A stretch of 44,672 bases of DNA from an uncultured Bacilli bacterium (GTDB lineage Bacteria; Bacillota_I; Bacilli_A; RF39; UBA660): the NCBI GenBank assembly GCA_944371315.1, contig CALVXN010000005.1, forward strand, positions 1 to 44,672. Reading direction: 5' to 3'. A model generated the notes under the pieces. The model saw only the letters and a list, made by a program, of their open reading frames with translations, searched no databases and was not told where the DNA came from. Positions 7,108-26,779 of the stretch are shown here, in pieces. The position numbers and the translations under genes are program-made. Numbering within the stretch: position 1 is the first letter of the stretch; each line of letters opens with the position of its first letter.

Positions 7108-7979
7108 AACCTCCCTTTATTTTTCCTACATTTTACTTATTTCTTTTTTACTTAATCCAGTTGCTTTAATTATAGTATCTATTGGCATTCCTAAATTAAT
7201 TAGATTCTTAGCAATATTCTTTTTCTCTTTTTCCATGCCCTCTTCTAATGCATCTTCCCTAATTGATTTCTTTTCTATCATTTCATCTAATTCTTGATCA
7301 TAGTAAAACCTAATTGTTTCTCTTTTTATTAAATCATCTCTTATTTTTTCTGCTTCCATTAATACTTCATCTCCTTTTATAAATTCATTTATTTCTTTTT
7401 TTTCATATCTTGTTATTAATAAATACAATAAATATTTTTCTAATTTTTTTATTTTTTTTCCTTCTTTATAATTTTTCTTTTCATATTCTAAATAGATTTC
7501 ATACACTTTTATTGTTTGGGTATATATATCATTATTTTTATTTTTTAATACATAACTACTAAATTTTTGAGGCTTATCTAATTTGCTTTTGTATGCATTT
7601 ATATTAAATAATATTAAATTTTTTTCCTCATCCCAATAAGTTTTGCTTGCAAATATGGCACATAAATATTTTAATTTATTTTCTTTCATTTTTTTATAAT
7701 AGTTTCTATTCATTTCAAATACTATTATTATATTATCTATGCTTATCATACAATCGGTCATTTTCTTTTTTTCTTTATTTGCATTTTCCGTTATTATTTC
7801 TGAATCTAATATTTTTAAATTTTCCCTTACATATTCTTTATCTATTTTTAATAATTCTGAAACTATACTTATTAAATAGTTAAAACATTCTTTGCTTTTA
7901 AAATATATTTTAAATAATGTATCATATGTTAAATCTAAACTTTCCAACAAAACCTCCCTTTATTTTCCTACATTTTACT
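6260..7979. repeat. Tandem direct duplication (843-bp offset over most of its length) carrying the two near-identical Rpn genes
   Basis: 6481-7120 is essentially identical to 7324-7963. The differences, including a 24-nt indel, cluster in the 3' part of the genes. Confidence 0.92.
7126..7950 (-). CDS. Rpn/YhgA-like PD-(D/E)XK nuclease family protein, copy 2 (TTG start)
   Basis: Identical to copy 1 up to EEGMEK, then lacks 8 aa; same C-terminus TGLSKKEISKM. Confidence 0.8.
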   Translation of the reverse strand: MLESLDLTYDTLFKIYFKSKECFNYLISIVSELLKIDKEYVRENLKILDSEIITENANKEKKKMTDCMISIDNIIIVFEMNRNYYKKMKENKLKYLCAIFASKTYWDEEKNLILFNINAYKSKLDKPQKFSSYVLKNKNNDIYTQTIKVYEIYLEYEKKNYKEGKKIKKLEKYLLYLLITRYEKKEINEFIKGDEVLMEAEKIRDDLIKRETIRFYYDQELDEMIEKKSIREDALEEGMEKEKKNIAKNLINLGMPIDTIIKATGLSKKEISKM

Positions 7980-8655
7980 AATTTCTTTTTTACTCAATCC
8001 AGTTATAGATGATATTAAATCTATTGATAAACCATGTTCTTTCATACTTTTAGCATTATTTATTTTTTCTTTTTTTAAACCCTTTTCCATTCCAATTTTT
8101 GTTGCATATTCCAATTTCATGTTTTCTTCTAATCTTCTTTCATATTCAGGGTCAAAATCCCATATGAACTCTTCATTTTCTTCTAATCTTTTTCTTTCTT
8201 TTTCTATTTCCATTAATACTTCATTTCCCTTTATTAATTTTTTTATTATTTTTTCACCTTCAATACTTGTTAAATACAAATATAATAAATACTTTTCTAA
8301 TTTACTTATTGTAAATTCATCATACCATTTTTTATATATTTCAACAAGACTTATTTCATATATTTTTATAGCGTCAGTATATAAATTTTCATAGTTTTCT
8401 TGTAATTTATATTCACTTCTATTTTCAATATTTTTAAATCTATTTATGTTTACTAATATTATCTTCTTTGGTTCGTATTTTTCACCCTTTCTAAAACAAT
8501 TATTATATGTTGATGTTACATATCTTAATTTTAATTCTCTATAATTTTCATAATAGCTTCTATTCATTTCAATTATAATTACAAATTCATCTATTAATAT
8601 TATACAATCAGATATTTTTCCTTTTTCTTAGTAAAATCAATATTTTTGTGCACAT
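7968..8655 (-). pseudogene. Diverged third Rpn-family copy, 5'-truncated or frameshifted (intact frame 7968-8567 extends upstream to about 8627)
   Basis: In-frame upstream residues KISDCIILIDEFVIIIEMNR align with KMTDCMISIDNIIIVFEMNR of copies 1 and 2, then a TAA intervenes. The SD GGGAGG + ATG at 8655 is in a different frame. Same C-terminus TGLSKKEISKM. Confidence 0.65.
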
Positions 8656-8718
8656 ATTCCTCCCTTCACTTATATATCTTTCTTATTTATTTTTACTTTC
8701 CTTTTTTAAACAATAAAA

Positions 8719-8739
8719 AAACAACTTTTTTAGTTGTTT
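8719..8739 (-). terminator. Probable terminator after ylbL
   Basis: aaacaact/agttgttt inverted repeat overlapping the stop codon, followed by a T-run on the minus strand. Confidence 0.45.
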
Positions 8740-9734
8740 AAGTATTCTAATGCTTCATCAAAAGTATTTACCCCATGTATATCTATATCTAAATCAAATT
8801 CTTCTTTAACTTTTATCGTTTCTTCATAATTTTCCATTGGACAAATAAATATATCAGCATCATTTTTTACTGCTCCTAGTATTTTATATTTAACTCCATC
8901 TATTGCACCAACTTCACCATTAATTTCAATTGTTCCAGTTCCAACAATAGTTCTTCCTTTTGTAATATCTTCTTTTGTTAATGCATTATAAATTGCTAAA
9001 CTAAGCATTAATCCTCCACTAGAACCTGATTCACTTGCTTTTGTTTTAACATCAATCGAAGGATCAGTTTCATATTCATAAGTAGTTAAAAAAGATATTC
9101 CAACCTTTAATCCATCAGCTGTTTCATATATTTTGGCACTACATTCCTTTTCTTTATTATTTCTTATTACTTTTAATTTTATGGTATCTCCAGCTTCTTT
9201 TTCATTTACAATTTTTTTTACTTCATCTATATTTGTTACTTCAACACCTTCAACACTTATAAGCTCGTCATACATTTTTAAATCAGTTTCTGCATCATCT
9301 GCTATATATATTATATTATTTACTTTTTTAGTTATTTTTAACTCTTTTCCAGCCTTTTCATAAGCAAGTATAGTTGCATTATTAATTGATGATTGCATAT
9401 ATAATTTTTCTAATTCTATTAAATCATCTACTGATTCGTCTTCCCTAGTTATTTCGTCTTTATCTATTAAATCCCAATTAGGTATAATATATGAAAGTAA
9501 AATCATCGGAGCTGTTCCTTTGACAAGGGATACATAACTCATATTAAGTGACCCATCAGATTCATAAGCATCATCGACACTTATTCTTTTTTCTAAATTA
9601 ACTATTCCCCCAGGAGTATATATTACATAAGGAAATTCATAAAAAAACAAAAAAATAATTATACCCCAAATAATTAAAAATTTATAATTTTCAACAATAA
9701 AACTTTTTATACCATCATATAATTTATTAAACAA
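8730..9734 (-). CDS. ylbL: YlbL/SepM-family PDZ + Lon-like (S16) serine protease
   Basis: PYVIYTPGG N-terminus, PDZ region, SGSSGGLM catalytic Ser motif, GTGTI..G.VG.I.GV.YK; divergent from ylbJ, which is near ylbL in Bacillus. Confidence 0.8.
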   Translation of the reverse strand: MFNKLYDGIKSFIVENYKFLIIWGIIIFLFFYEFPYVIYTPGGIVNLEKRISVDDAYESDGSLNMSYVSLVKGTAPMILLSYIIPNWDLIDKDEITREDESVDDLIELEKLYMQSSINNATILAYEKAGKELKITKKVNNIIYIADDAETDLKMYDELISVEGVEVTNIDEVKKIVNEKEAGDTIKLKVIRNNKEKECSAKIYETADGLKVGISFLTTYEYETDPSIDVKTKASESGSSGGLMLSLAIYNALTKEDITKGRTIVGTGTIEINGEVGAIDGVKYKILGAVKNDADIFICPMENYEETIKVKEEFDLDIDIHGVNTFDEALEYLNN

Positions 9735-9775: not shown

Positions 9776-10600
9776 ATGAAAAAAAATATTATTTACTTGA
9801 CAATACTTGGACTACTATTTCTTATTTTTAAAAATTATAATATTGTTTTAGAAAGCTCTATTACTGCTGTAAATTTATGGCTATATAAAGTTTTCCCTTT
9901 TCTTTTTATAATGATTATAATAAATGACTTATTAATTAATCTTGATTTTCAATCATTATTTAAAAATACAAGTATTTATATATTTATTATGTCTTTATTA
10001 AGTGGTAGTCCTACTTCTGCAGTTATAATATGTAATTTATATAAAAATAATAAAATAACTAAAAATAATGCTAATGTTACTCTTTTATTTACTTACTTTG
10101 CTAATCCTTTATTTTTATGGACTATCTTAAATTCTATTTTTAATTCTAAAATAATTTCTATTAAACTTATTTTAATTCATTATATATCTAATCTAATTAT
10201 ATATTTTATAGTAAAGAAAAAACTAGATAAATCAATTACTTATAATAATAAGATAAATATTAATATATCTAGTTCCATTAAAAAAGCAATGACTACAACT
10301 ACTATGGTTCTAGGGGCCATTACTTTTTATCTAATTATTAGTAATATATTATCTTTAAATTTATTATTTAAAGGTTTACTTGAAATGACTCAAGGTTTAA
10401 ATGCTTTAATTAATTATAATTCTTATTTTAAAGAGCTTTTAGCAATTCTTTTCATATCCTTTGGGGGTTTATCTATCCATACCCAAGTTAAATGCATTTT
10501 AGATGAAGAAAATATCTCTTATAAATATTTTTTAAAGGGAAGAATTATGCAAACATTAATTGCATTAGGACTTATTATATTAACTAGTGCATGGATCTGA
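9776..10600 (+). CDS. ylbJ: Sporulation integral membrane protein YlbJ-like
   Basis: LW..VFP.LF, SLLSG.PTSA, F.NP.F, GLLEMTQG, FGGLSIH.QV motifs; hydrophobic. Confidence 0.75.
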   Translation: MKKNIIYLTILGLLFLIFKNYNIVLESSITAVNLWLYKVFPFLFIMIIINDLLINLDFQSLFKNTSIYIFIMSLLSGSPTSAVIICNLYKNNKITKNNANVTLLFTYFANPLFLWTILNSIFNSKIISIKLILIHYISNLIIYFIVKKKLDKSITYNNKININISSSIKKAMTTTTMVLGAITFYLIISNILSLNLLFKGLLEMTQGLNALINYNSYFKELLAILFISFGGLSIHTQVKCILDEENISYKYFLKGRIMQTLIALGLIILTSAWI

Positions 10601-11173
10601 TGGTGAAGAACATGTTGCTCCAAGACAATTTATATTTGTGGTTACTAAATCATCAAGTTTCCCAATATAATTTATTATGATATCATCAAGAGTATTATTA
10701 TTACATAATTTATTCTTTTCATTAGTTGTATGTATTTCTATATCTATTGATAAACTATAATAATTTTTTCCAGAAGCATTATTGTCCTTCATATAATATA
10801 CATTTGCTTTTTTTGTGTATATTGTTCCACCTTCAATATTCCATGCTCTACTTTCACCATCACTATCAGTATATTTTATCTTTTTTTCTTCTGCTTCTAT
10901 TTTAGAACTAGTTCTATCAGTAAATTCAATATTAATAACTAGTTTAGTTTCATTACTTCCAGAATCATTTATACTAGCTATATTTTTATTATTTAAGTCA
11001 TTTCCTATCATTCTAAGTATTTCTGCTCTATTTATTTGATTATCCTTAGCATATGTATTATTTGCCTCAGCATCATTTAAATCTATTAATAACTTTATCA
11101 TAAATAATAACACAACAGAAATTAATGCAATACTTATTATTAATTCAGCAAGGGTAGTTCCTTTTTTATTCAT
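10580..11173 (-). CDS. Type IV pilin/pseudopilin-like protein
   Basis: Class III signal MNKKG|TTLAELIISIALISVVLLFM with Glu at +5; several C-terminal Cys. Confidence 0.8.
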   Translation of the reverse strand: MNKKGTTLAELIISIALISVVLLFMIKLLIDLNDAEANNTYAKDNQINRAEILRMIGNDLNNKNIASINDSGSNETKLVINIEFTDRTSSKIEAEEKKIKYTDSDGESRAWNIEGGTIYTKKANVYYMKDNNASGKNYYSLSIDIEIHTTNEKNKLCNNNTLDDIIINYIGKLDDLVTTNINCLGATCSSPSDPCTS

Positions 11174-11175
11174 GA

Positions 11176-12072
11176 CTAACCTCCGATTATATATGGATCC
11201 ATTTCTGATCCACTACCACTAATATATCTATTACTATTACTTAATACTACAACTGGTCTAACACTATATGTATTAGTTATTTCACCAGATGCAACATTCC
11301 CACTAGTATCTATATAAAAGAAATTTTTTATATTATTAAAGTCTCTTACCATTGTCCACATATTAGGTACATTTTTAAGCCAGTTATTTGCAGTATTATA
11401 TTCATTTACTTTTTTAACCCAATCACCTGGTGCTGCAGCATAAGCATAATCACTTATATATAAAAGACCAACTTTACTATATACTGCTCCATATGCATTA
11501 CTATTTTCACCTAGCTCTAAGCTATATACCCCATTAGCAGTTAAATCTAATTTTATATCTTCATCACTTGGCACATACCAATAATTATTATCTATTGCAT
11601 CTTCAACATCTACCAATGTATTTAAATATTCATCAGTTAAATAATCAGTATATAAATTACTTGTTACATAATCATTTTTATTATTATCAGTATATGTTCT
11701 AGTTGTAATAGCTTCATTTCTAATTATTTTTACTTTCCCATTAATTACACCAATTATTCGCCATAACTCATTATTGAATTTTACATAATTACTTGGATTA
11801 GATCCACTATATCTATAATTATTATCATTTGCTCCATTTGTTAAATCAGCATCATGATAATAAAGTCCATTTTCTCCGTCAGTAGTATATACTTCATTTA
11901 TTATATAACTAGCAAAACTACTAATAGCAATTTCATCTTTTATTTTTTCTTTTATTCCATTTAATAGTGTTCTATTACTTACTAAATTATTTACTATAAA
12001 TAAAAGCATTAATAAAAATACTAAAAAAAATGAATAAACTGTTGTTGTTGAAATAAAACCTTTTTTATTCAT
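11176..12072 (-). CDS. Minor-pilin-like protein (no Glu+5) fused to a DUF6273/CLec-like domain
   Basis: MNKKG|FISTTTVYSFFLVFLLMLL N-terminus; YRYSG.NP.NYV, WRIIG, VGL.Y.SDY.YA, NNWL, WTM, YSVRPV, GSG...DPY motifs shared with 12926-14536. Confidence 0.7.
   Translation of the reverse strand: MNKKGFISTTTVYSFFLVFLLMLLFIVNNLVSNRTLLNGIKEKIKDEIAISSFASYIINEVYTTDGENGLYYHDADLTNGANDNNYRYSGSNPSNYVKFNNELWRIIGVINGKVKIIRNEAITTRTYTDNNKNDYVTSNLYTDYLTDEYLNTLVDVEDAIDNNYWYVPSDEDIKLDLTANGVYSLELGENSNAYGAVYSKVGLLYISDYAYAAAPGDWVKKVNEYNTANNWLKNVPNMWTMVRDFNNIKNFFYIDTSGNVASGEITNTYSVRPVVVLSNSNRYISGSGSEMDPYIIGG
11851..11917. repeat. Homologous block shared with 13811-13877
   Basis: 58/67 nt identical; encodes FASYIINEVYT(T/A)DGENGLYYHD (21/22 aa identical). 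Confidence 0.85.
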
Positions 12073-12080
12073 AGCTTCAC

Positions 12081-12665
12081 CTACAAACCTAATGATACAA
12101 AATAATTACGACAATTTGTATCAACTCTTGGAGTGCATTTAGTAATTTTACCATCACTATCTACTTTTTCACTATATTCAACTACTAAATAATAATCATG
12201 TTTTGTATCATTTATTGATTTAATATAATTTGTTAAGTTATATGCATTATCTGTTGCATTAAAATAACATTTACCTGATGTTTCACTTCCATCACATTCA
12301 TCTATATAATTTCTTTTAACTAAAAACATTTGATTAACCTTAAAATTATTTAATATATTTTCTAACGTATTATTCATATTTTCCGCTAATTGTGCTTCAT
12401 TAAAAAAGTTATCAAATGCATTTCCTATTGACGTTACATATGATTTTTTAAATGCTTCACTTTTAACATATTCAATATTAGCGTTTTCTTCTAAAAATCT
12501 TTTTATATAATTAGTTTTATAGATATATGCTACATCATCATAATACACTCTTGTTTCTTCTTTATCAATTATATTATTGTAAGAATTATATAAATATAAT
12601 AAAGAAGTCGACAAAACAAGAACTGTAACAATAGTTTCAATAAATACAAAACCTTTATTTTTCAT
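12081..12665 (-). CDS. Type IV pilin/pseudopilin-like protein
   Basis: Class III signal MKNKG|FVFIETIVTVLVLSTSLLYL with Glu at +5; two Cys pairs. Confidence 0.78.
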   Translation of the reverse strand: MKNKGFVFIETIVTVLVLSTSLLYLYNSYNNIIDKEETRVYYDDVAYIYKTNYIKRFLEENANIEYVKSEAFKKSYVTSIGNAFDNFFNEAQLAENMNNTLENILNNFKVNQMFLVKRNYIDECDGSETSGKCYFNATDNAYNLTNYIKSINDTKHDYYLVVEYSEKVDSDGKITKCTPRVDTNCRNYFVSLGL

Positions 12666-12883
12666 TATATCCCTACTTTAATAATTATTTTATTTTTTTC
12701 TACTAATATATTATATTAACTATATTATCAATAGAATATGTTGGAGTATTGAAAGTTTAAATTTAGCAACAAGTCCTTTAACACTAATTAATTTTAAGAA
12801 CATTTAATACTGTTCTTTGCTTTTAAAGCCATACCAACGATAAAATTAAATGCTTATTTATTATTTTTTGTTGATAAGTCCGA

Positions 12884-12910
12884 CCACGTCGGTTTGAGAT
12901 GCCGACGTGG
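12884..12910. promoter_or_regulatory. GC-rich hairpin/cruciform 15 nt downstream of the putative DGR target gene
   Basis: Perfect 9-bp stem ccacgtcgg/ccgacgtgg with a 9-nt loop; no U-tract follows it on the coding (minus) strand. Confidence 0.7.
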
Positions 12911-12925
12911 CCTTTTTTAGGTTTC

Positions 12926-14536
12926 TCACACCGCAATTCTAAATGGCGAATCCTTTGTCCCATTTCCACTGGCATACGGGATATTAGACTTCAGATAAAA
13001 GACAGGCCTAACAGAATAGCCATTATACGCGTAGCTAGTGTAGAGATTGCCGTTATAATTAAAGTTAAACACATCGCTGGAGGCGGACGAATTCGGGGTC
13101 ATTGTCCATTCATATAATCCCATATATAGCCAATTATTTTCCTTTATTGTTAATGAACTATATGAATTTAAATTTGTTTTCCATGCATCAGAATAAGCTG
13201 CATATCCATAATCACTTACATACATTAATCCTATTTTTGTAGAATTACCATTTGCATTTTCTGGTCCATATGTTGTTGGATTACTTCCATATCCTGAATT
13301 ATTTCTCTCACCCGTATAAAAACTTTTTGCTGTATTACTAGAAGATGTCATCCCCCCCAAATGCCATGTTGAATCCTCTATCATATCACTCCATGAATTT
13401 CCTAAATAAGATATATAATTTGTATTTAAATTTATTTTATTTAATTCACTTGTTGTCCAATTATTTGATCCATATGAACTTACACTTTTATCATAATTCC
13501 ATCTATATGCCACAATCGTGCTTGTATCCATACTTCCTTTATAATTTGAAGTTGAAGATGTATAATTTCCTTTATAATCTCTTCCATTAATTCCAAGCAT
13601 TGCGCTTGTTGTATAATCTGCTTTTATTAATTTAACATTATATTCTCCATCATTATCTTCATCAAAGACACCAATTATACGATACAAATATTCATCTGGG
13701 CAAGTATCAGCATCACTTCCAAAACACACATAATTATTTGGATTAGCCCCACTATATCGATACGAATTATCACCAGCTTCTTGATCTGCATTTGTGTAGT
13801 CACCTACTCCATCATGATAATATAATCCATTTTCTCCATCAGCAGTATAAACCTCATTAATAATATAACTTGCAAAAGTTTTATATTCATCTTTCTTTAA
13901 TAATATAGATGCATTTAAACTTTTTCCACCATTTTCATGTTGGTTTGTTTCTAAATTTATAAATGTTACTTTAAATGTCCAATTTTGAATAGTTGGATTA
14001 GTGCTACTACTAGATGATATTTCATAAAGCGATGCAACATTATATAAATCATCAGCTGTTGTAATATCAAAGCCAGTAACTGTTGAACCATCAGCATTAG
14101 TTGCTGTAACATAATTAAGGCCACTTAAACTAGTAATTTCTTCTCCTAAAGGATTAGTAATAGTTAATACTATTTCTGGTGTTTTTTCTGGAGTAGTATA
14201 AACATAATTATTAGAATTTATTCGAAAATAAACATAATAATTATATGTTGCAGTCTTATTGGTTGAATTAGCAACTAAACTAGCAGTCCCTGTTGCTTGA
14301 TCTGATAAACCACTTCCACCTTCAGTAACATTAAATTGTGTTGGATTTAAATCAATTTCTTTATCTACACTAAATTTTAAATTATCTGTTGTATCTGCAC
14401 CTATATTTACATTACCTGTTGCTCCCCCAGATATTTGAGCAATTACATAAGCAAAAGATACACCAATAAATAAAATTAAAAGTAAAGATAAAAGTAATAT
14501 TTTTTTGTTTTTTAAATATGTTTTTACCTTGTTCAT
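12926..14536 (-). CDS. Secreted/surface protein with SipW-type signal peptide and C-terminal DUF6273/CLec-like domain; candidate DGR target
   Basis: Hydrophobic N-terminus ending GVSFAY; C-terminus WTMTP...NGN......NGYSVRPVFYL...G.GT...PF. Confidence 0.75.
   Translation of the reverse strand: MNKVKTYLKNKKILLLSLLLILFIGVSFAYVIAQISGGATGNVNIGADTTDNLKFSVDKEIDLNPTQFNVTEGGSGLSDQATGTASLVANSTNKTATYNYYVYFRINSNNYVYTTPEKTPEIVLTITNPLGEEITSLSGLNYVTATNADGSTVTGFDITTADDLYNVASLYEISSSSSTNPTIQNWTFKVTFINLETNQHENGGKSLNASILLKKDEYKTFASYIINEVYTADGENGLYYHDGVGDYTNADQEAGDNSYRYSGANPNNYVCFGSDADTCPDEYLYRIIGVFDEDNDGEYNVKLIKADYTTSAMLGINGRDYKGNYTSSTSNYKGSMDTSTIVAYRWNYDKSVSSYGSNNWTTSELNKINLNTNYISYLGNSWSDMIEDSTWHLGGMTSSSNTAKSFYTGERNNSGYGSNPTTYGPENANGNSTKIGLMYVSDYGYAAYSDAWKTNLNSYSSLTIKENNWLYMGLYEWTMTPNSSASSDVFNFNYNGNLYTSYAYNGYSVRPVFYLKSNIPYASGNGTKDSPFRIAV
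12968..13102 (-). other. Putative DGR variable region (VR)
   Basis: 45 consecutive codons (ATG 13102 to AGT 12968) with no A at position 3; about 46% GC over 12881-13100 versus about 26% in the next 100 nt of the same gene; many codons derivable from AAY. Confidence 0.75.
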
Positions 14537-16392: not shown

Positions 16393-16421
16393 TATAATAT
16401 AATGCATTCGTGGGGGTTGTC

Positions 16422-17192
16422 ATGAAAGAGATTAAAAAAAGTGAACTTTTAAGTTATCCTGAATTTAGTGAATCTATTTATTGGAGTCAAAAAAATACTT
16501 TATATAAAATATGTAAATTATTACCAGTTGAACATGAACGAATAGAATTTCTAAAATTTATTTATAAATTAGATATTCCAGGTTTAATTAAGCCATTAGA
16601 TTTATTAAGTAATGAAAAAATATATGGTTATGAAATGCCTTATGTTGATGGGACTACCGTAGATAAAGTCTTAGTTGCCTCAACTACCGATATTAACGTA
16701 ATACAGATAATTAAAGAAATGTTTAATATCTTGGGTAAAATACATGAACATTTCATTTATGGTGATATTAGATGTTCCAATATTATGATTTCTAATAATT
16801 TACCATTGTTTATTGATTAGGATTCTGGAAAACCTTTAAATTCCAATTATTGGGTTGTTTCATATTATAATTTATTCATTAAAAGGCAATATGGAGCTAA
16901 TAAGCTTGAAGATATCGCTAAATTATATATTTGTGCATTATCATTACTCTATCAAATTGATATAGAACTATTTGTTATGCGTTATGGTCCATATGCTTTA
17001 AGAGATTTCTTAACTGATGCTAATGTTAATAGCGAAATTGTTAATGCATTAAATATTTTGATTAGGGTTTATGAAGAAGAAAAAGATTCAACAAATTATG
17101 ATTTTATTGAAATGTTTTCAATTATTAATTTACCTTCTAGTAAAGAAAAAGAATTAATTAGAGCCAGATTAAATCCTTTTATTAGAAAATAA
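16422..17192 (+). pseudogene. Minimal protein-kinase-like gene, copy 1, with an in-frame TAG at 16818-16820
   Basis: ORFs 16410-16820 and 16977-17192 are in the same frame. FID*DSG aligns with FIDWDFG/FIDWDLG of the paralogues; catalytic loop HFIYGDIRCSN. Confidence 0.8.
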
Positions 17193-17209
17193 CTATTTAG
17201 GAGAATGAA

Positions 17210-17980
17210 ATGAAAGAAATTGATAGAAGAATTATTGAAACATTTCCAAAGTTTTCAAAAGATATTTATTGGAGCATGGATAGAACTTTATATAAAATAT
17301 GTAAATTTGATTTATCTACATTAAATAGAATTAATTTTTTAAAATATGTTTATGGATTAGATAATGTTCCTGGTTTAAATTTACCATTAAGTTTATTATA
17401 TGATGATGAAATTTACGGCTATGAAATGGCTTATATAAATGGTTCATGTAACATTGATGAGTATATATCGGTATCAAATAAAGATAAAGATGTAAGAAAG
17501 ATTATATCAAGTATATTTGAAGCATTAAAAGAAATTCATAAATATTTTATATTTATAGATGTTCGCAATTCAAATATTTTAGTTAAAGATAATAGTGCTA
17601 TATTTATTGACTGGGATTTTGGAATTATTAAAGGGACAGAAGATTATGCAAGATCTTATTATCGGGTATTAACAAGAAAATATATAGGAACTGTTTTAGA
17701 AGATTTAGTAAAAGCTTTTATTAGTGCTTTATCCCTACTATATCATTGTGATATTGAATTTTTTATGACAACTCATAATTTATTTGATTTACAAAGTTTA
17801 TTAGAAAGTATAAATGCCGATAAAGAAATTATTCATTGTGTAAAATTATTTACTGGATTGTATGTTTATGATGAAAGAGTTAAAGATTTTGACTTTACAA
17901 ATATGTTTTTAAATGTTAATTTACCAACTAAAAAAGAAAAAGAATTAATTAGAGAAAGGATTCGTCATATTAGAAAATAA
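17210..17980 (+). CDS. Minimal protein-kinase-like protein, copy 2
   Basis: LYKI (beta3 Lys), YGYEM hinge, IH....DVRNSN catalytic loop, IDWDFG metal-binding motif. Confidence 0.75.
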   Translation: MKEIDRRIIETFPKFSKDIYWSMDRTLYKICKFDLSTLNRINFLKYVYGLDNVPGLNLPLSLLYDDEIYGYEMAYINGSCNIDEYISVSNKDKDVRKIISSIFEALKEIHKYFIFIDVRNSNILVKDNSAIFIDWDFGIIKGTEDYARSYYRVLTRKYIGTVLEDLVKAFISALSLLYHCDIEFFMTTHNLFDLQSLLESINADKEIIHCVKLFTGLYVYDERVKDFDFTNMFLNVNLPTKKEKELIRERIRHIRK

Positions 17981-17996
17981 CGAATTGAGGTGTTTT

Positions 17997-18770
17997 ATGA
18001 TAGAAATAGATAGAGAAATTATAAAAACTTATCCTAAGTTTTCTTTAGGAATATATAAAGGTGAAAATAATGATTTATATAAAATATGTCCTTCATTTCC
18101 TGATAAAGAGCAAAGAATAAATTTTTTAAAATTTATGAATAGTTTTAAATCTTTTCCAGGAGTTTTATTACCAACAGATTTATTATGTGATAGAGAAATT
18201 TACGGATATAAGATGCCTTTTATAAGCGATGCCCAAGATATATCTTTATTAGTATCTCGTGATGAACAAGATAAAGATGTTAGAAAAATAATCTTAGATA
18301 TATTTGCAATTTTAAAAGAAATACATAAATATTTTATTTTTAATGATATTCGCACTTCTAACATTTTAATTAAAGATGATAGTGCTATTTTTATTGACTG
18401 GGATTTAGGAATAATTAAAAATTCTACTGATAAAGCATGCTGTTATTATTATACTTATAATATATCGTATATAGGAACCATTTTTGAAGATATTGTTAAA
18501 GCTTTTATTAGTGCTTTATCATTATTTTATCATTATGATTTAGAAATTTTTATGAAAAAACATAGCATTTTTGATTTAAGAGAATTATTACTTAATGCAA
18601 AAGCCGATAGAGAAATAATACATACAATAGACATTATAATTGATATATATTTTAAAAAAAGAAAAATGGAAGAACTAGATGTTGTAGGTTTATTTGAAAC
18701 AATTGATTTACCTAGTAAAAGAGAAAAAAATAGAGTTAGAAAAAGAATAAAATCTCAAGTTAATAAGTAA
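17997..18770 (+). CDS. Minimal protein-kinase-like protein, copy 3
   Basis: Paralogue of copy 2 (DIRTSN, IDWDLG, VKAFISALSL); SD GAGGTG before ATG 17997. Confidence 0.75.
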   Translation: MIEIDREIIKTYPKFSLGIYKGENNDLYKICPSFPDKEQRINFLKFMNSFKSFPGVLLPTDLLCDREIYGYKMPFISDAQDISLLVSRDEQDKDVRKIILDIFAILKEIHKYFIFNDIRTSNILIKDDSAIFIDWDLGIIKNSTDKACCYYYTYNISYIGTIFEDIVKAFISALSLFYHYDLEIFMKKHSIFDLRELLLNAKADREIIHTIDIIIDIYFKKRKMEELDVVGLFETIDLPSKREKNRVRKRIKSQVNK

Positions 18771-25477: not shown

Positions 25478-26779
25478 GTGATACAAATGTTTAGAGATTT
25501 TGACTACGAAAATAAACCTGTTGTAGACATAGTAAACGAAATGATTATCGATGCTATTAATAAAAAAGCATCCGATATTCATTTTGACCCTACTGAAGAT
25601 TCCCTAAATGTCCGCATTAGAATTGATGGGGAACTTTTAGAATATGCTAAAGTTCCTAATTTCGTCAAAAAAAATCTCTTAACTAGAATAAAAATCATAT
25701 CTGGAATGAATATTACTGAAACAAGATTACCTCAAGATGGTGCCATAAAAAACTTAACTGATAAATTAGATTTAGATTTACGTGTATCTAGTTTACCTAT
25801 TGTTGATGGAGAAAAAATAGTTATACGTATTTTAAACTATTCTATGAGCACAGCAGGATTAGAAAATCTTGGATTATCAGATAAAAATTTAGAAAAGATT
25901 AATAAATTAATAAAAGTTCCAAATGGAATTATACTTGTAGCTGGTGCTACTGGTAGTGGTAAATCAACTACTGTTTATGCTATGTTACAAGTATTAAATA
26001 CTGTTTCAAGGAATATTATTACTGTTGAAGATCCAGTTGAAATGAAAATTGCTGGCATTAATCAAGTTCAAGTTATGAGTGATATCGGTCTTACTTTTGG
26101 CAATACTTTAAGAAGTATTCTTAGACAAGACCCAGATATAATAATGATCGGAGAAATTCGTGATGATGAAACTGCTCGTATTGCAGTTAGAGCATCTATT
26201 ACTGGACACCTTGTTTTATCTACAATACACACTAATAATTCATTAAACACTATTGAAAGATTACTAGATATGGAAGTAGAAAGATATTTATTAGGTAGTG
26301 CTTTGTCTGGTATAATATCTCAAAGATTAGTTAAAAGATTATGTCCTAAATGTAGAACAAGCCGTCCTACTACTCAATTTGAAAAGGTTCTATTTGAAAA
26401 AGTTTTAAATCAAAAAGTAGATCAAGTTTATGCTCCTCATGGATGTAGTGAATGTATAAATGGATATACCGGTCGAATTGCATTACATGAAATACTAATA
26501 ATGAATCAAGAAATACGCGATGCTATTACAAACAATATTCGTAAAAATGAATTAAGACATCTTGTTTATGATCGTAGTGATGTTACGAGTTTACTTAAAG
26601 ATGGTCTTGAAAAAGTTGTTGCAGGTCTTACTAGTATTGAAGAGATATTAAGAGTTATCGATGTTGATGAAGATATCGGGGAAGATGAAGAAGATATTAA
26701 AGCAGCATTCATGGGAAAACCACAAGAAGTTAACGAAACTATGGATATTGTATCTAATGATGAAATTGAAACATTATAA
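25478..26779 (+). CDS. GspE/PulE/PilB-family pilus assembly ATPase
   Basis: ASDIH, RLPQDG, GATGSGKST, TVEDPVE, LRQDPD, GEIRD, TGHLV.ST.H, CPKC...CSEC zinc motif. Confidence 0.93.
   Translation: MIQMFRDFDYENKPVVDIVNEMIIDAINKKASDIHFDPTEDSLNVRIRIDGELLEYAKVPNFVKKNLLTRIKIISGMNITETRLPQDGAIKNLTDKLDLDLRVSSLPIVDGEKIVIRILNYSMSTAGLENLGLSDKNLEKINKLIKVPNGIILVAGATGSGKSTTVYAMLQVLNTVSRNIITVEDPVEMKIAGINQVQVMSDIGLTFGNTLRSILRQDPDIIMIGEIRDDETARIAVRASITGHLVLSTIHTNNSLNTIERLLDMEVERYLLGSALSGIISQRLVKRLCPKCRTSRPTTQFEKVLFEKVLNQKVDQVYAPHGCSECINGYTGRIALHEILIMNQEIRDAITNNIRKNELRHLVYDRSDVTSLLKDGLEKVVAGLTSIEEILRVIDVDEDIGEDEEDIKAAFMGKPQEVNETMDIVSNDEIETL

Follow-up and report, generated by a model that had tools for sequence, protein, structure and literature searches.

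Diversity-generating retroelements (DGRs) of cellular genomes that have several targets, remote ones among them, and that carry MutS-like (MSL) accessory genes have already been published (PMC5758913; for this and the other papers cited, what we say follows those parts of the text that were available). There, in the survey of Wu et al., the most non-adjacent targets given for one DGR are seven, and the DGR of Legionella contains one MSL gene. The element of Bordetella phage BPP-1 needs a hairpin or cruciform downstream of its variable region (VR), where the structure of the stem matters and its sequence does not, and the hairpins of phage elements described by Guo et al. have stems of 7-10 bp and 4-nt GRNA loops and lie 4-34 bp from the VR (PMC3240598). 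In Treponema, isolate SP32 has a remote VR that fits the template repeat (TR) of another strain type better than its own (PMC4891356). The DUF6273 domains of phage DGR targets have been reported as C-type-lectin-like, from predicted models (PMC10743442). The approach of the largest metagenome survey would miss targets that do not adjoin a reverse transcriptase (RT) (Roux et al., PMC8144416). Here we describe a target of the remote kind. The stretch analysed, hereafter the window, is contig C5 (CALVXN010000005.1, 44,672 nt) of an uncultured Bacilli bacterium (GCA_944371315.1), whose genome comprises 1,085,115 bases in 58 contigs (93.5% complete, contamination estimate 0.23%, GC 25.3%). We are confident that window 13005-13098 is the VR of a remote chromosomal DGR target, the retroelement of which lies on contig C29 of the same 1.09-Mb genome.

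The variable region and the template repeat on contig C29

The 3' end of the target gene stands apart from the rest of the gene in composition, and a preliminary description made from the window alone had read it as an orphan DGR-type VR. Counting G and C in 12881-13100 gives 101 of 220 (45.9%), the same figure as reported there; the 300 nt upstream in the gene (13101-13400) are indeed low in GC, at 31% (0.27-0.36 in the sliding profile), slightly higher than the ~26% then given. GC content at third codon positions (GC3) is 0.07 in codons 1-215 and 0.12 in codons 216-470, and it reaches 0.50 in codons 471-484, 0.53 in codons 485-516 and 0.40 in codons 517-536. The longest stretch without A at codon position 3 is the reported run of 45 codons (479-523), at exactly 12968-13102, and the codon string quoted from it is found as written in the coding strand. 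Given that A occupies the third position in codons 1-470 at a frequency of 0.40, a single run of this length has a naive probability of ~9e-11. Both the GC jump and the scarcity of third-position A result from the composition of the TR and of the conserved flank.

A genome-wide search with window 12860-13160 as the query returns, besides the stretch itself, eight more VR-like copies, located on C35, C56, C2, C19, C26, C28 and twice on C29 (C29a and C29b), and one intergenic match, C29 9478-9570. The latter is a non-coding TR adjoining an RT gene, which is the kind of copy that a whole-genome search had been expected to reveal. RVT_1 matches occur in two places only, C29 and C44, the C29 match (9792-10460) being the one that adjoins the TR, and the stretch is single-copy on C5; thus, it is correct that neither RT nor TR is present in the 44 kb, and the label orphan suits the window and not the genome. 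Read in the frame of the VR, the TR comprises 32 codons, of which 15 are AAY and 18 have A at position 1 or 2. Its translation agrees with 25 of the 27 residues specified by the template that had been deduced from the VR beforehand, the two misses being Tyr for Asn and Ser for Arg.

The RT (PF00078, E 8e-19) has the sequence IGNMTSQ at residue 200 and YMDD at residue 231. A [LIV]GxxxSQ motif in place of the group II intron motif, together with YxDD, is the mark of DGR-class RTs. The best solved relative of the RT is chain 8ub7_A, 'Reverse transcriptase', 328 aa (E 1.6e-15), which we take to be the enzyme of the Bordetella phage, although the record itself does not say so. On the minus strand of C29 the order is a 451-aa target, a 173-aa open reading frame (ORF), a 119-aa ORF, RT, TR, a 95-aa ORF and a 378-aa target. 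The 119-aa ORF overlaps the start of RT and is Avd-like: NF033474 (E 1.5e-9) and PF22296 (E 1.3e-6) match it with scores below their curated cut-offs, and PHROG 3206 'Avd protein of DGR' matches it at E 3.7e-9; no solved relative of it was found by sequence. The 173-aa ORF (ORF173) is MutS-like, as 11 of 13 aligned homologues match MutS_I (best E 4.8e-6), and in a comparison of the profile of its homologues with solved chains MSH6 ranks first (E 0.011). The TR, the DGR-type RT and the Avd-like gene upstream of it support the DGR-type reading of the VR, and their location, with the MutS-like gene, on a separate contig supports the further proposal of a remote target diversified in trans.

In the comparison of TR and VRs, the 94-nt homology provides 36 A and 58 non-A positions. 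Differences from the TR fall at 18 A and 3 non-A positions in C35, at 12 and 3 in C56, at 21 and 2 in C2 and at 19 and 6 in C29a and C29b, with Fisher p values for the adenine bias of 5e-4 to 2e-9. By these counts, the differences in the system as a whole concentrate at template adenines, as is characteristic of DGRs. The corresponding figures are 20 and 12 for C19, 14 and 12 for the window VR, 26 and 27 for C26 and 19 and 24 for C28. Therefore, the prediction that VR and template would differ almost only at template A is borne out by sister copies (80-91% of differences at A) and only weakly by the window VR itself. The first 12 nt of the window VR are identical to the TR. At its other end, the single mismatch within the last stretch of homology is a site with G in eight of the nine VR copies and T in the TR; by likeness to phage BPP-1 (PMC5758913), this end may serve as the initiation of mutagenic homing (IMH) element. 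The TR diverges past the end of homology, and the post-VR flank is not copied from it. Among the paralogues, DNA identity is 0.58-0.72 in the VR, 0.77-0.91 elsewhere in the module and 0.86-0.88 in the 3' flank.

Could the GC-rich tail have arisen without any retroelement, by recombination or gene conversion with a donor of higher GC, the Asn/Tyr/Ser pattern being coincidental? The GC-rich part outruns the TR homology by ~125 nt, through the flank and into the hairpin described below, and the C-terminal modules are common to the paralogues, both of which would suit such an origin. Yet the genome has a matching TR next to an RT of the DGR type, and the sister copies depart from the TR almost solely at adenines, which makes this explanation highly improbable. 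Nor was the cassette imported from a GC-rich source, since RT and avd are strongly AT-rich, at 11-26% GC in the profile.

As in other members of the DGR family, the TR would be transcribed, RT and Avd would copy it into cDNA with random bases opposite the template adenines, and the cDNA would replace the VR. The 18 codons with A at position 1 or 2, the 15 AAY codons among them, would be rewritten in this way, and the single TR found would serve all nine VR-bearing paralogues in trans.

Several other features of the C29 locus and of the RT complement deserve mention. The two C29 targets (7940-9076 and 11577-12932, minus strand) agree exactly over 370 nt, the entire VR included, and show 88-98% identity further upstream. 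Recent gene conversion, duplication or assembly collapse could account for the identical VRs, which are odd for an active DGR. Directly after the TR lies the 95-aa ORF (ORF95; C29 locus L011, 9051-9338, minus strand), which is present in 30 of 58 related loci. It has no solved relative and no counterpart among the families of Pfam, NCBIfam or PHROGs; its assignment as a second MutS-like protein was rejected (hhalign probability 5.6%). ORF95 may be a DGR accessory gene not described so far. Past the 3' end of the TR (L011 ~9340-9480, minus strand) the RNA has a conserved structure of two stem-loops, for which 36 pairs are predicted; a comparison of 8 sequences shows compensatory changes at 8 of these pairs, and structured RNA at the 3' end of the TR is also found in loci L013-L017, L125 and L129. 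It is possible that this RNA is the counterpart of the spacer RNA of the phage element that primes cDNA synthesis. The second RT of the genome (C44, locus L010, 508-2367, minus strand, 619 aa) has a HEPN AbiA C-terminal domain (E 2.7e-13) and, on the strength of that domain match, is an AbiA-like abortive-infection RT that does not belong to the DGR.

Of 24 other genomes of the genus, 21 have a homologue of the DGR RT, as does 1 of the 16 genomes searched from other families. The homologues form two lineages, of ~73-75% and ~50% identity, and both lineages are present in some genomes. The 58 related loci, from genomes and gut metagenomes and many of them cut short, include homologues of ORF173 in 47, avd in 54 and ORF95 in 30; the ORF173 homologue lies upstream of avd in 47 of the 58. 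TRs and targets of relatives were compared by permissive local alignment, the counts of which include flanks, short-word BLAST having given fragments only. In the genome with the closest orthologue (G007) the last 16 nt of the VR equal the TR of that genome, and differences in the TR core, as read from the alignment, are mostly at adenines. Another genome, of three contigs (G010), was examined for remote targets on a single chromosome and showed only one VR adjacent to the element, one on another contig and one 23-nt remnant.

Table 1. Features of the target gene, its surroundings and the retroelement (window coordinates unless C29 is given)
Feature	Position	Strand	Remarks
DGR target gene	12926-14536	minus	intact ORF, 536 aa; hydrophobic N-terminal segment, then ~215-aa N-terminal domain, then ~310-aa C-terminal domain
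Variable region (VR)	13005-13098	minus	94 nt homologous to C29 TR
3' end of VR/TR homology (IMH-like)	13005-13015	minus	one mismatch to TR, at 13007
Post-VR coding flank	12929-13004	minus	25 codons, conserved among paralogues, GC3 0.40
GC-rich hairpin	12882-12912	minus	stem of 11 bp that includes a G-T pair; loop of 9 nt
Conserved motif (C/G)TTATCAACA	12869-12878	minus	just 3' of hairpin
Pilin-like ORF directly downstream of target	12081-12665	minus	194 aa; ComGE E 0.009 (below cut-off); N-terminal pattern
Undiversified paralogue of C-terminal domain	11176-12072	minus	298 aa; BLASTP 34% identity, E 2e-33
Pilin-like ORF	10580-11173	minus	197 aa; TIGR02532 prepilin N-terminal domain E 0.048 (below cut-off)
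Type II/IV secretion ATPase (T2SSE)	25478-26779	plus	PF00437 E 1.2e-123 at C5:25508-26653
Template repeat (TR)	C29 9479-9572	minus	non-coding, ~16 nt past RT stop
Reverse transcriptase (RT)	C29 9588-10646	minus	352 aa, PF00078

Variation among orthologues and origin of the window allele

The comparison covered 122 proteins (120 listed and 2 cluster members), the orthologue set being taken from those of at least 400 aa. Ten of these match the window protein in the N-terminal domain at 96% identity or more, and eight different VRs occur among them; the window protein, P0121 and P0122 share one VR, and the remaining seven orthologues have each its own. Over the eight VR alleles, codons with A at TR position 1 or 2 (n=18) hold a mean of 4.33 different residues, against 1.43 in the others (n=14), and 7 of 255 cells are unreachable by A changes, all at the protein level. 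Polymorphism in relatives is thus limited, with these exceptions, to the template-A codons, as the preliminary description had anticipated. Given this variation at A-bearing codons, the window locus is a DGR target in the population.

The same VR-bearing C-terminal module occurs on different N-terminal types (P0033 and P0062, P0061 and P0068, and also P0042 compared with C35 of the present genome). Exchange or gene conversion between paralogues, or chimeric assemblies, could produce such sharing. In natural samples, the stretch occurs in runs labelled chicken gut metagenome, with perfect contigs covering 12656-12911 in X1 and X4. Among the assembled contigs of four runs, the perfect ones end at 12911, in the hairpin, and none listed crosses the VR; the metagenome contigs on the stretch include paralogues and related species piled up.

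A number of points weigh against the assignment of 13005-13098 as a VR served from C29. Because the genome is a draft of 58 contigs, C5 and C29 are joined by binning only. Taken alone, the window VR is weakly biased, with 54% of its mismatches at A (Fisher p 0.047), and the usual criteria for calling DGRs would not accept it when compared with the assembled TR. Both other members of its 90% cluster have an identical VR, so that no turnover is seen among the closest relatives, and the VR allele of the window looks stable there. The orthologues are consensus proteins of assemblies, in some of which the assignment of VR to gene could be chimeric. Finally, the evidence for DGR activity, drawn from sequence comparison, is indirect throughout.

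A question follows from the weak bias, from which template was the window allele written? Leaving aside the IMH site, the window VR has 11 differences at non-A positions, as compared with 1-2 in C35, C56 and C2. As read from the alignment, all but one are transitions, mostly at third codon positions. At 10 of the 11 sites the same base is found in C19, C26 or C28 (permutation p 0.003), and at seven sites two or all three of these copies have it (permutation p 0.00075). Such recurrence points to a shared earlier state of the template rather than to independent drift. The TRs of related species likewise vary among themselves at positions of this kind. At locus L125, the RT of which is 97% identical, the TR differs from that of the present genome at eight pyrimidine or A/G positions. 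The L125 TR (~1855-1965) also bears a 15-nt (five-codon) tandem duplication, and VRs longer by about five residues are found among the homologues (P0046, for example); thus, templates of this lineage vary in length as well as in their pyrimidines. With the duplicated block skipped, the window VR differs from the L125 TR at 13 A and 7 non-A positions, compared with 14 and 12 when it is aligned to its own TR. C35, C56, C2 and C29a/b fit the L125 TR worse, with 7-9 non-A differences against 2-6 for their own TR. Given the better fit and the shared differences, another TR allele is the likely source of the window VR. Judged from these alignments, the window VR was probably last written from a TR allele absent from the assembly, either an older one or one of a co-binned strain. 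A search of metagenome contigs for RT/TR loci of the same species yielded 39 loci that could not be used for strain comparison, as the best RT identity is 76%.

The window VR may, on the one hand, be a relic, that is, a product of the DGR which is no longer rewritten and is now a fixed allele under purifying selection. Its excess of non-A differences over C35, C56 and C2 would be expected of a relic, as would the preponderance of transitions, 10 of 11, with nine of the differences keeping the expected residue class (read from the alignment), the identity of the VR in all three members of the 90% cluster and the presence in the genome of more decayed copies, C26 and C28. A relic is harder to reconcile with a 3' end of homology, flank and hairpin that are intact and the same as in the well-fitting copies, with an exact match to the TR over the first 12 nt of the VR, and with the seven other VRs in orthologues from other assemblies. 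We give this explanation some weight, short of an even chance. On the other hand, the draft may mix close strains, and the strain to which C5 belongs may have a matching TR, in which case the VR might be as active as its sisters. The L125 TR removes seven of the 11 non-A, non-IMH differences and adds two, so that the total with the IMH site included falls from 12 to 7; moreover, the genome is a 58-contig bin, and metagenome contigs break around the VR. Seven non-A differences nevertheless remain against the L125 TR, its 15-nt duplication is absent from the window VR, the contamination estimate is low and the decay of C26 (27 non-A differences) and C28 (24) is far too great to come from a mixture of strains, which leaves this second explanation unlikely.

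Target protein, downstream hairpin and neighbouring genes

No Pfam family matches the target protein at E<=0.01, and a comparison of the profile of its C-terminal domain with solved structures found nothing relevant. This domain is common to all nine VR-bearing genes; with residues 225-536 as the query, 7950 of 8000 scored candidates are relatives. The N-terminal domain (query window 13892-14536) belongs to a family that each of 31 searched genomes of the genus contains, at 4-71 matches apiece; for genomes of 1-1.7 Mb this family is very large, and it reads as one of surface proteins. A SipW/TasA-type signal peptide at the N-terminus was considered and dropped, as NCBIfam gave it no support.

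The DUF6273 model (PF19789) scores 13.1 bits on the VR region of the window in a genome-wide scan, below the cut-off of 23.5, and the window protein matches it at E 0.044 over the last 40 positions. Of 79 relatives, 10 match the model at E<=0.01 (best 2.7e-4), and the two checked singly score ~16 bits, under the cut-off. Set against a profile of 13 true DUF6273 domains, that of the C-terminal domain is aligned by hhalign over 144 columns, as far as the closing VRP strand (probability 44%, E 2.3e-4). This weak match is the one indication, and an indirect one, of the C-type lectin fold proposed in the preliminary description, in which the VR would occupy a solvent-exposed binding face. In the ESM Atlas, homologue P0125 finds only unnamed clusters of Bacillota, one of them with DUF6273 in 12% of its members, and no structure. 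In a genome of another family of the same class (G033, contig C1, 59367-62740), genes with DUF6273 domains lie directly upstream of an RT homologue of 34% identity; by its gene content, that locus is likely a DGR with a true DUF6273 target.

Downstream of the target gene, 13 nt past the stop codon and 92 nt past the end of the VR, begins a GC-rich hairpin with a predicted fold of -12.4 kcal/mol (z -3.5; none of 200 shuffles equals it). A GC-rich hairpin is found 13 nt past the stop in all well-kept targets, and it is not present after the TR. Searched in the genome, its two stem arms match only at VR targets (7 of 7 and 13 of 13 matches), and the hairpins of the two C29 targets show a compensatory pair. 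Relatives have hairpins with different stem sequences at the same place, GC-rich in ~26 of 34 flanks as read from the folds; these were folded singly, RNAalifold having found no consensus in a mixed alignment in which three stem types misalign. On the strand of the gene no T-run follows the hairpin, and a terminator is called on the opposite strand only. The motif (C/G)TTATCAACA comes after the hairpin in seven targets of this genome and in targets of relatives, where a CGAGTTATCAACA-like motif is conserved 3' of the hairpin. The 10-mer of the motif is unspecific alone, 7 of its 40 matches in the genome being at targets. By analogy with phage elements, we regard the hairpin as a candidate structure for target recognition by the DGR. 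An outer inverted repeat, TGATAAC over the stop codon and GTTATCA in the 3' motif, encloses the GC hairpin at targets of several related species, for example in loci L048, L053, L055 and L056; in the window copy it is degenerate.

The neighbourhood of the target gene is chromosomal, with RuvB, FolD, SHMT, ThyX, Tmk and a Lon-like protease nearby. Three pilin-like ORFs come after the target gene (Table 1), and they include the undiversified paralogue of the C-terminal module, which has a prepilin-like N-terminus by pattern and no DNA match to VR or TR. Pilin-like ORFs lie near targets on three contigs (C5, C26 and C56), and a prepilin peptidase is encoded on C24. The T2SSE ATPase of the window is a possible motor for the pilin-like proteins, its tie to the target being speculative. 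We propose that the target protein is a ligand-binder at the cell surface; from gene position only, it may be a variable adhesin associated with a pilus. Elsewhere in the window, at 16410-18770 on the plus strand, three tandem paralogous ORFs of 136, 256 and 261 aa lie beside a LysM/SpoVID-like gene. The ORF at 17210-17980 has a weak protein-kinase-like match below the cut-off, and the three may be related to the spore coat. Rfam gave no family on C29, C44 or the window, and no tRNA is present in the window.

Putting the copies, the hairpin and the pilin-like genes together leads to a broader proposal, in which one DGR serves nine pilus-linked surface-protein genes, cohorts of VRs record successive alleles of the template and a distal hairpin module directs the choice of target. 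C35, C56, C2 and C29a/b would be the cohort fitting the present TR, the window VR and C19 would hold earlier or foreign pyrimidines, and C26 and C28 would have decayed. Targets would enter and leave service while the TR drifts, by changes of one pyrimidine to the other and by the 15-nt duplication. They would be chosen through a GC hairpin, conserved in structure and variable in sequence, that lies 92 nt from the VR just past the stop codon and precedes the GTTATCAAC motif; such a distal module would have no match in the phage paradigm. As a joint claim this proposal is tentative and, taken as a whole, rather improbable.

Comparison with described retroelements

The remote target was recognisable from the raw sequence, by the GC jump and the scarcity of A at third positions, and could then be traced to its template. 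The result adds a lineage of gut Bacilli with small genomes, in which most searched species have such an element (21 of 24), and a large family of surface proteins of this lineage would be partly under DGR control. The series of copies, from well-fitting to decayed, and the second template allele offer material on how targets are gained and lost from service and on the rate at which a template changes. We consider two aspects to go beyond the routine. Nine copies in 1.09 Mb compare with seven non-adjacent targets as the maximum given in the available text of the survey of Wu et al. (PMC5758913), and the comparisons above provide evidence that copies within one genome record different template alleles.

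The similarity of the present targets to the DUF6273 targets of gut phages ('tentaclins', Faecalibacterium prophages) is weak; compared with the phage targets, the domain described here is ~310 aa long and cellular. The DGRs acting on Type V pilus adhesins of Bacteroides (bioRxiv 10.1101/2024.11.15.621889) likewise belong to gut bacteria and have pilus-linked adhesive targets, whereas the pilin-like genes of the present genome resemble type IV prepilins and are tied to the target by position only.

With BPP-1 the element has in common a TR/VR pair, changes at adenines, a one-base difference of the IMH kind, Avd and, past the VR, an inverted repeat rich in GC (PMC3240598). In contrast to BPP-1, it is cellular, its TR comes after the RT, and there are nine VR copies instead of one. 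The hairpin, at 92 nt from the VR and with a 9-nt loop, lies beyond the range that the available text of Guo et al. gives for phage elements (PMC3240598). Architecture D of Wu et al. (PMC5758913), that of the MSL-containing DGRs, likewise combines a small MutS-like gene with avd; the order here is msl-avd-RT-TR, and the conserved 95-aa ORF then follows past the TR in 30 of 58 loci.

In its arrangement the element resembles the DGR of Treponema denticola, a single cellular cassette with several non-adjacent chromosomal targets. The Treponema element is HRDC-containing according to Wu et al. (PMC5758913), whereas here avd is accompanied by a MutS-like gene, and the target family and the host, an uncultured member of the Bacilli, differ as well. 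The likeness extends to the fit between target and template, for the window VR fits the L125 TR better than its own, just as the remote VR of isolate SP32 is better matched by the TR of another strain type (PMC4891356).

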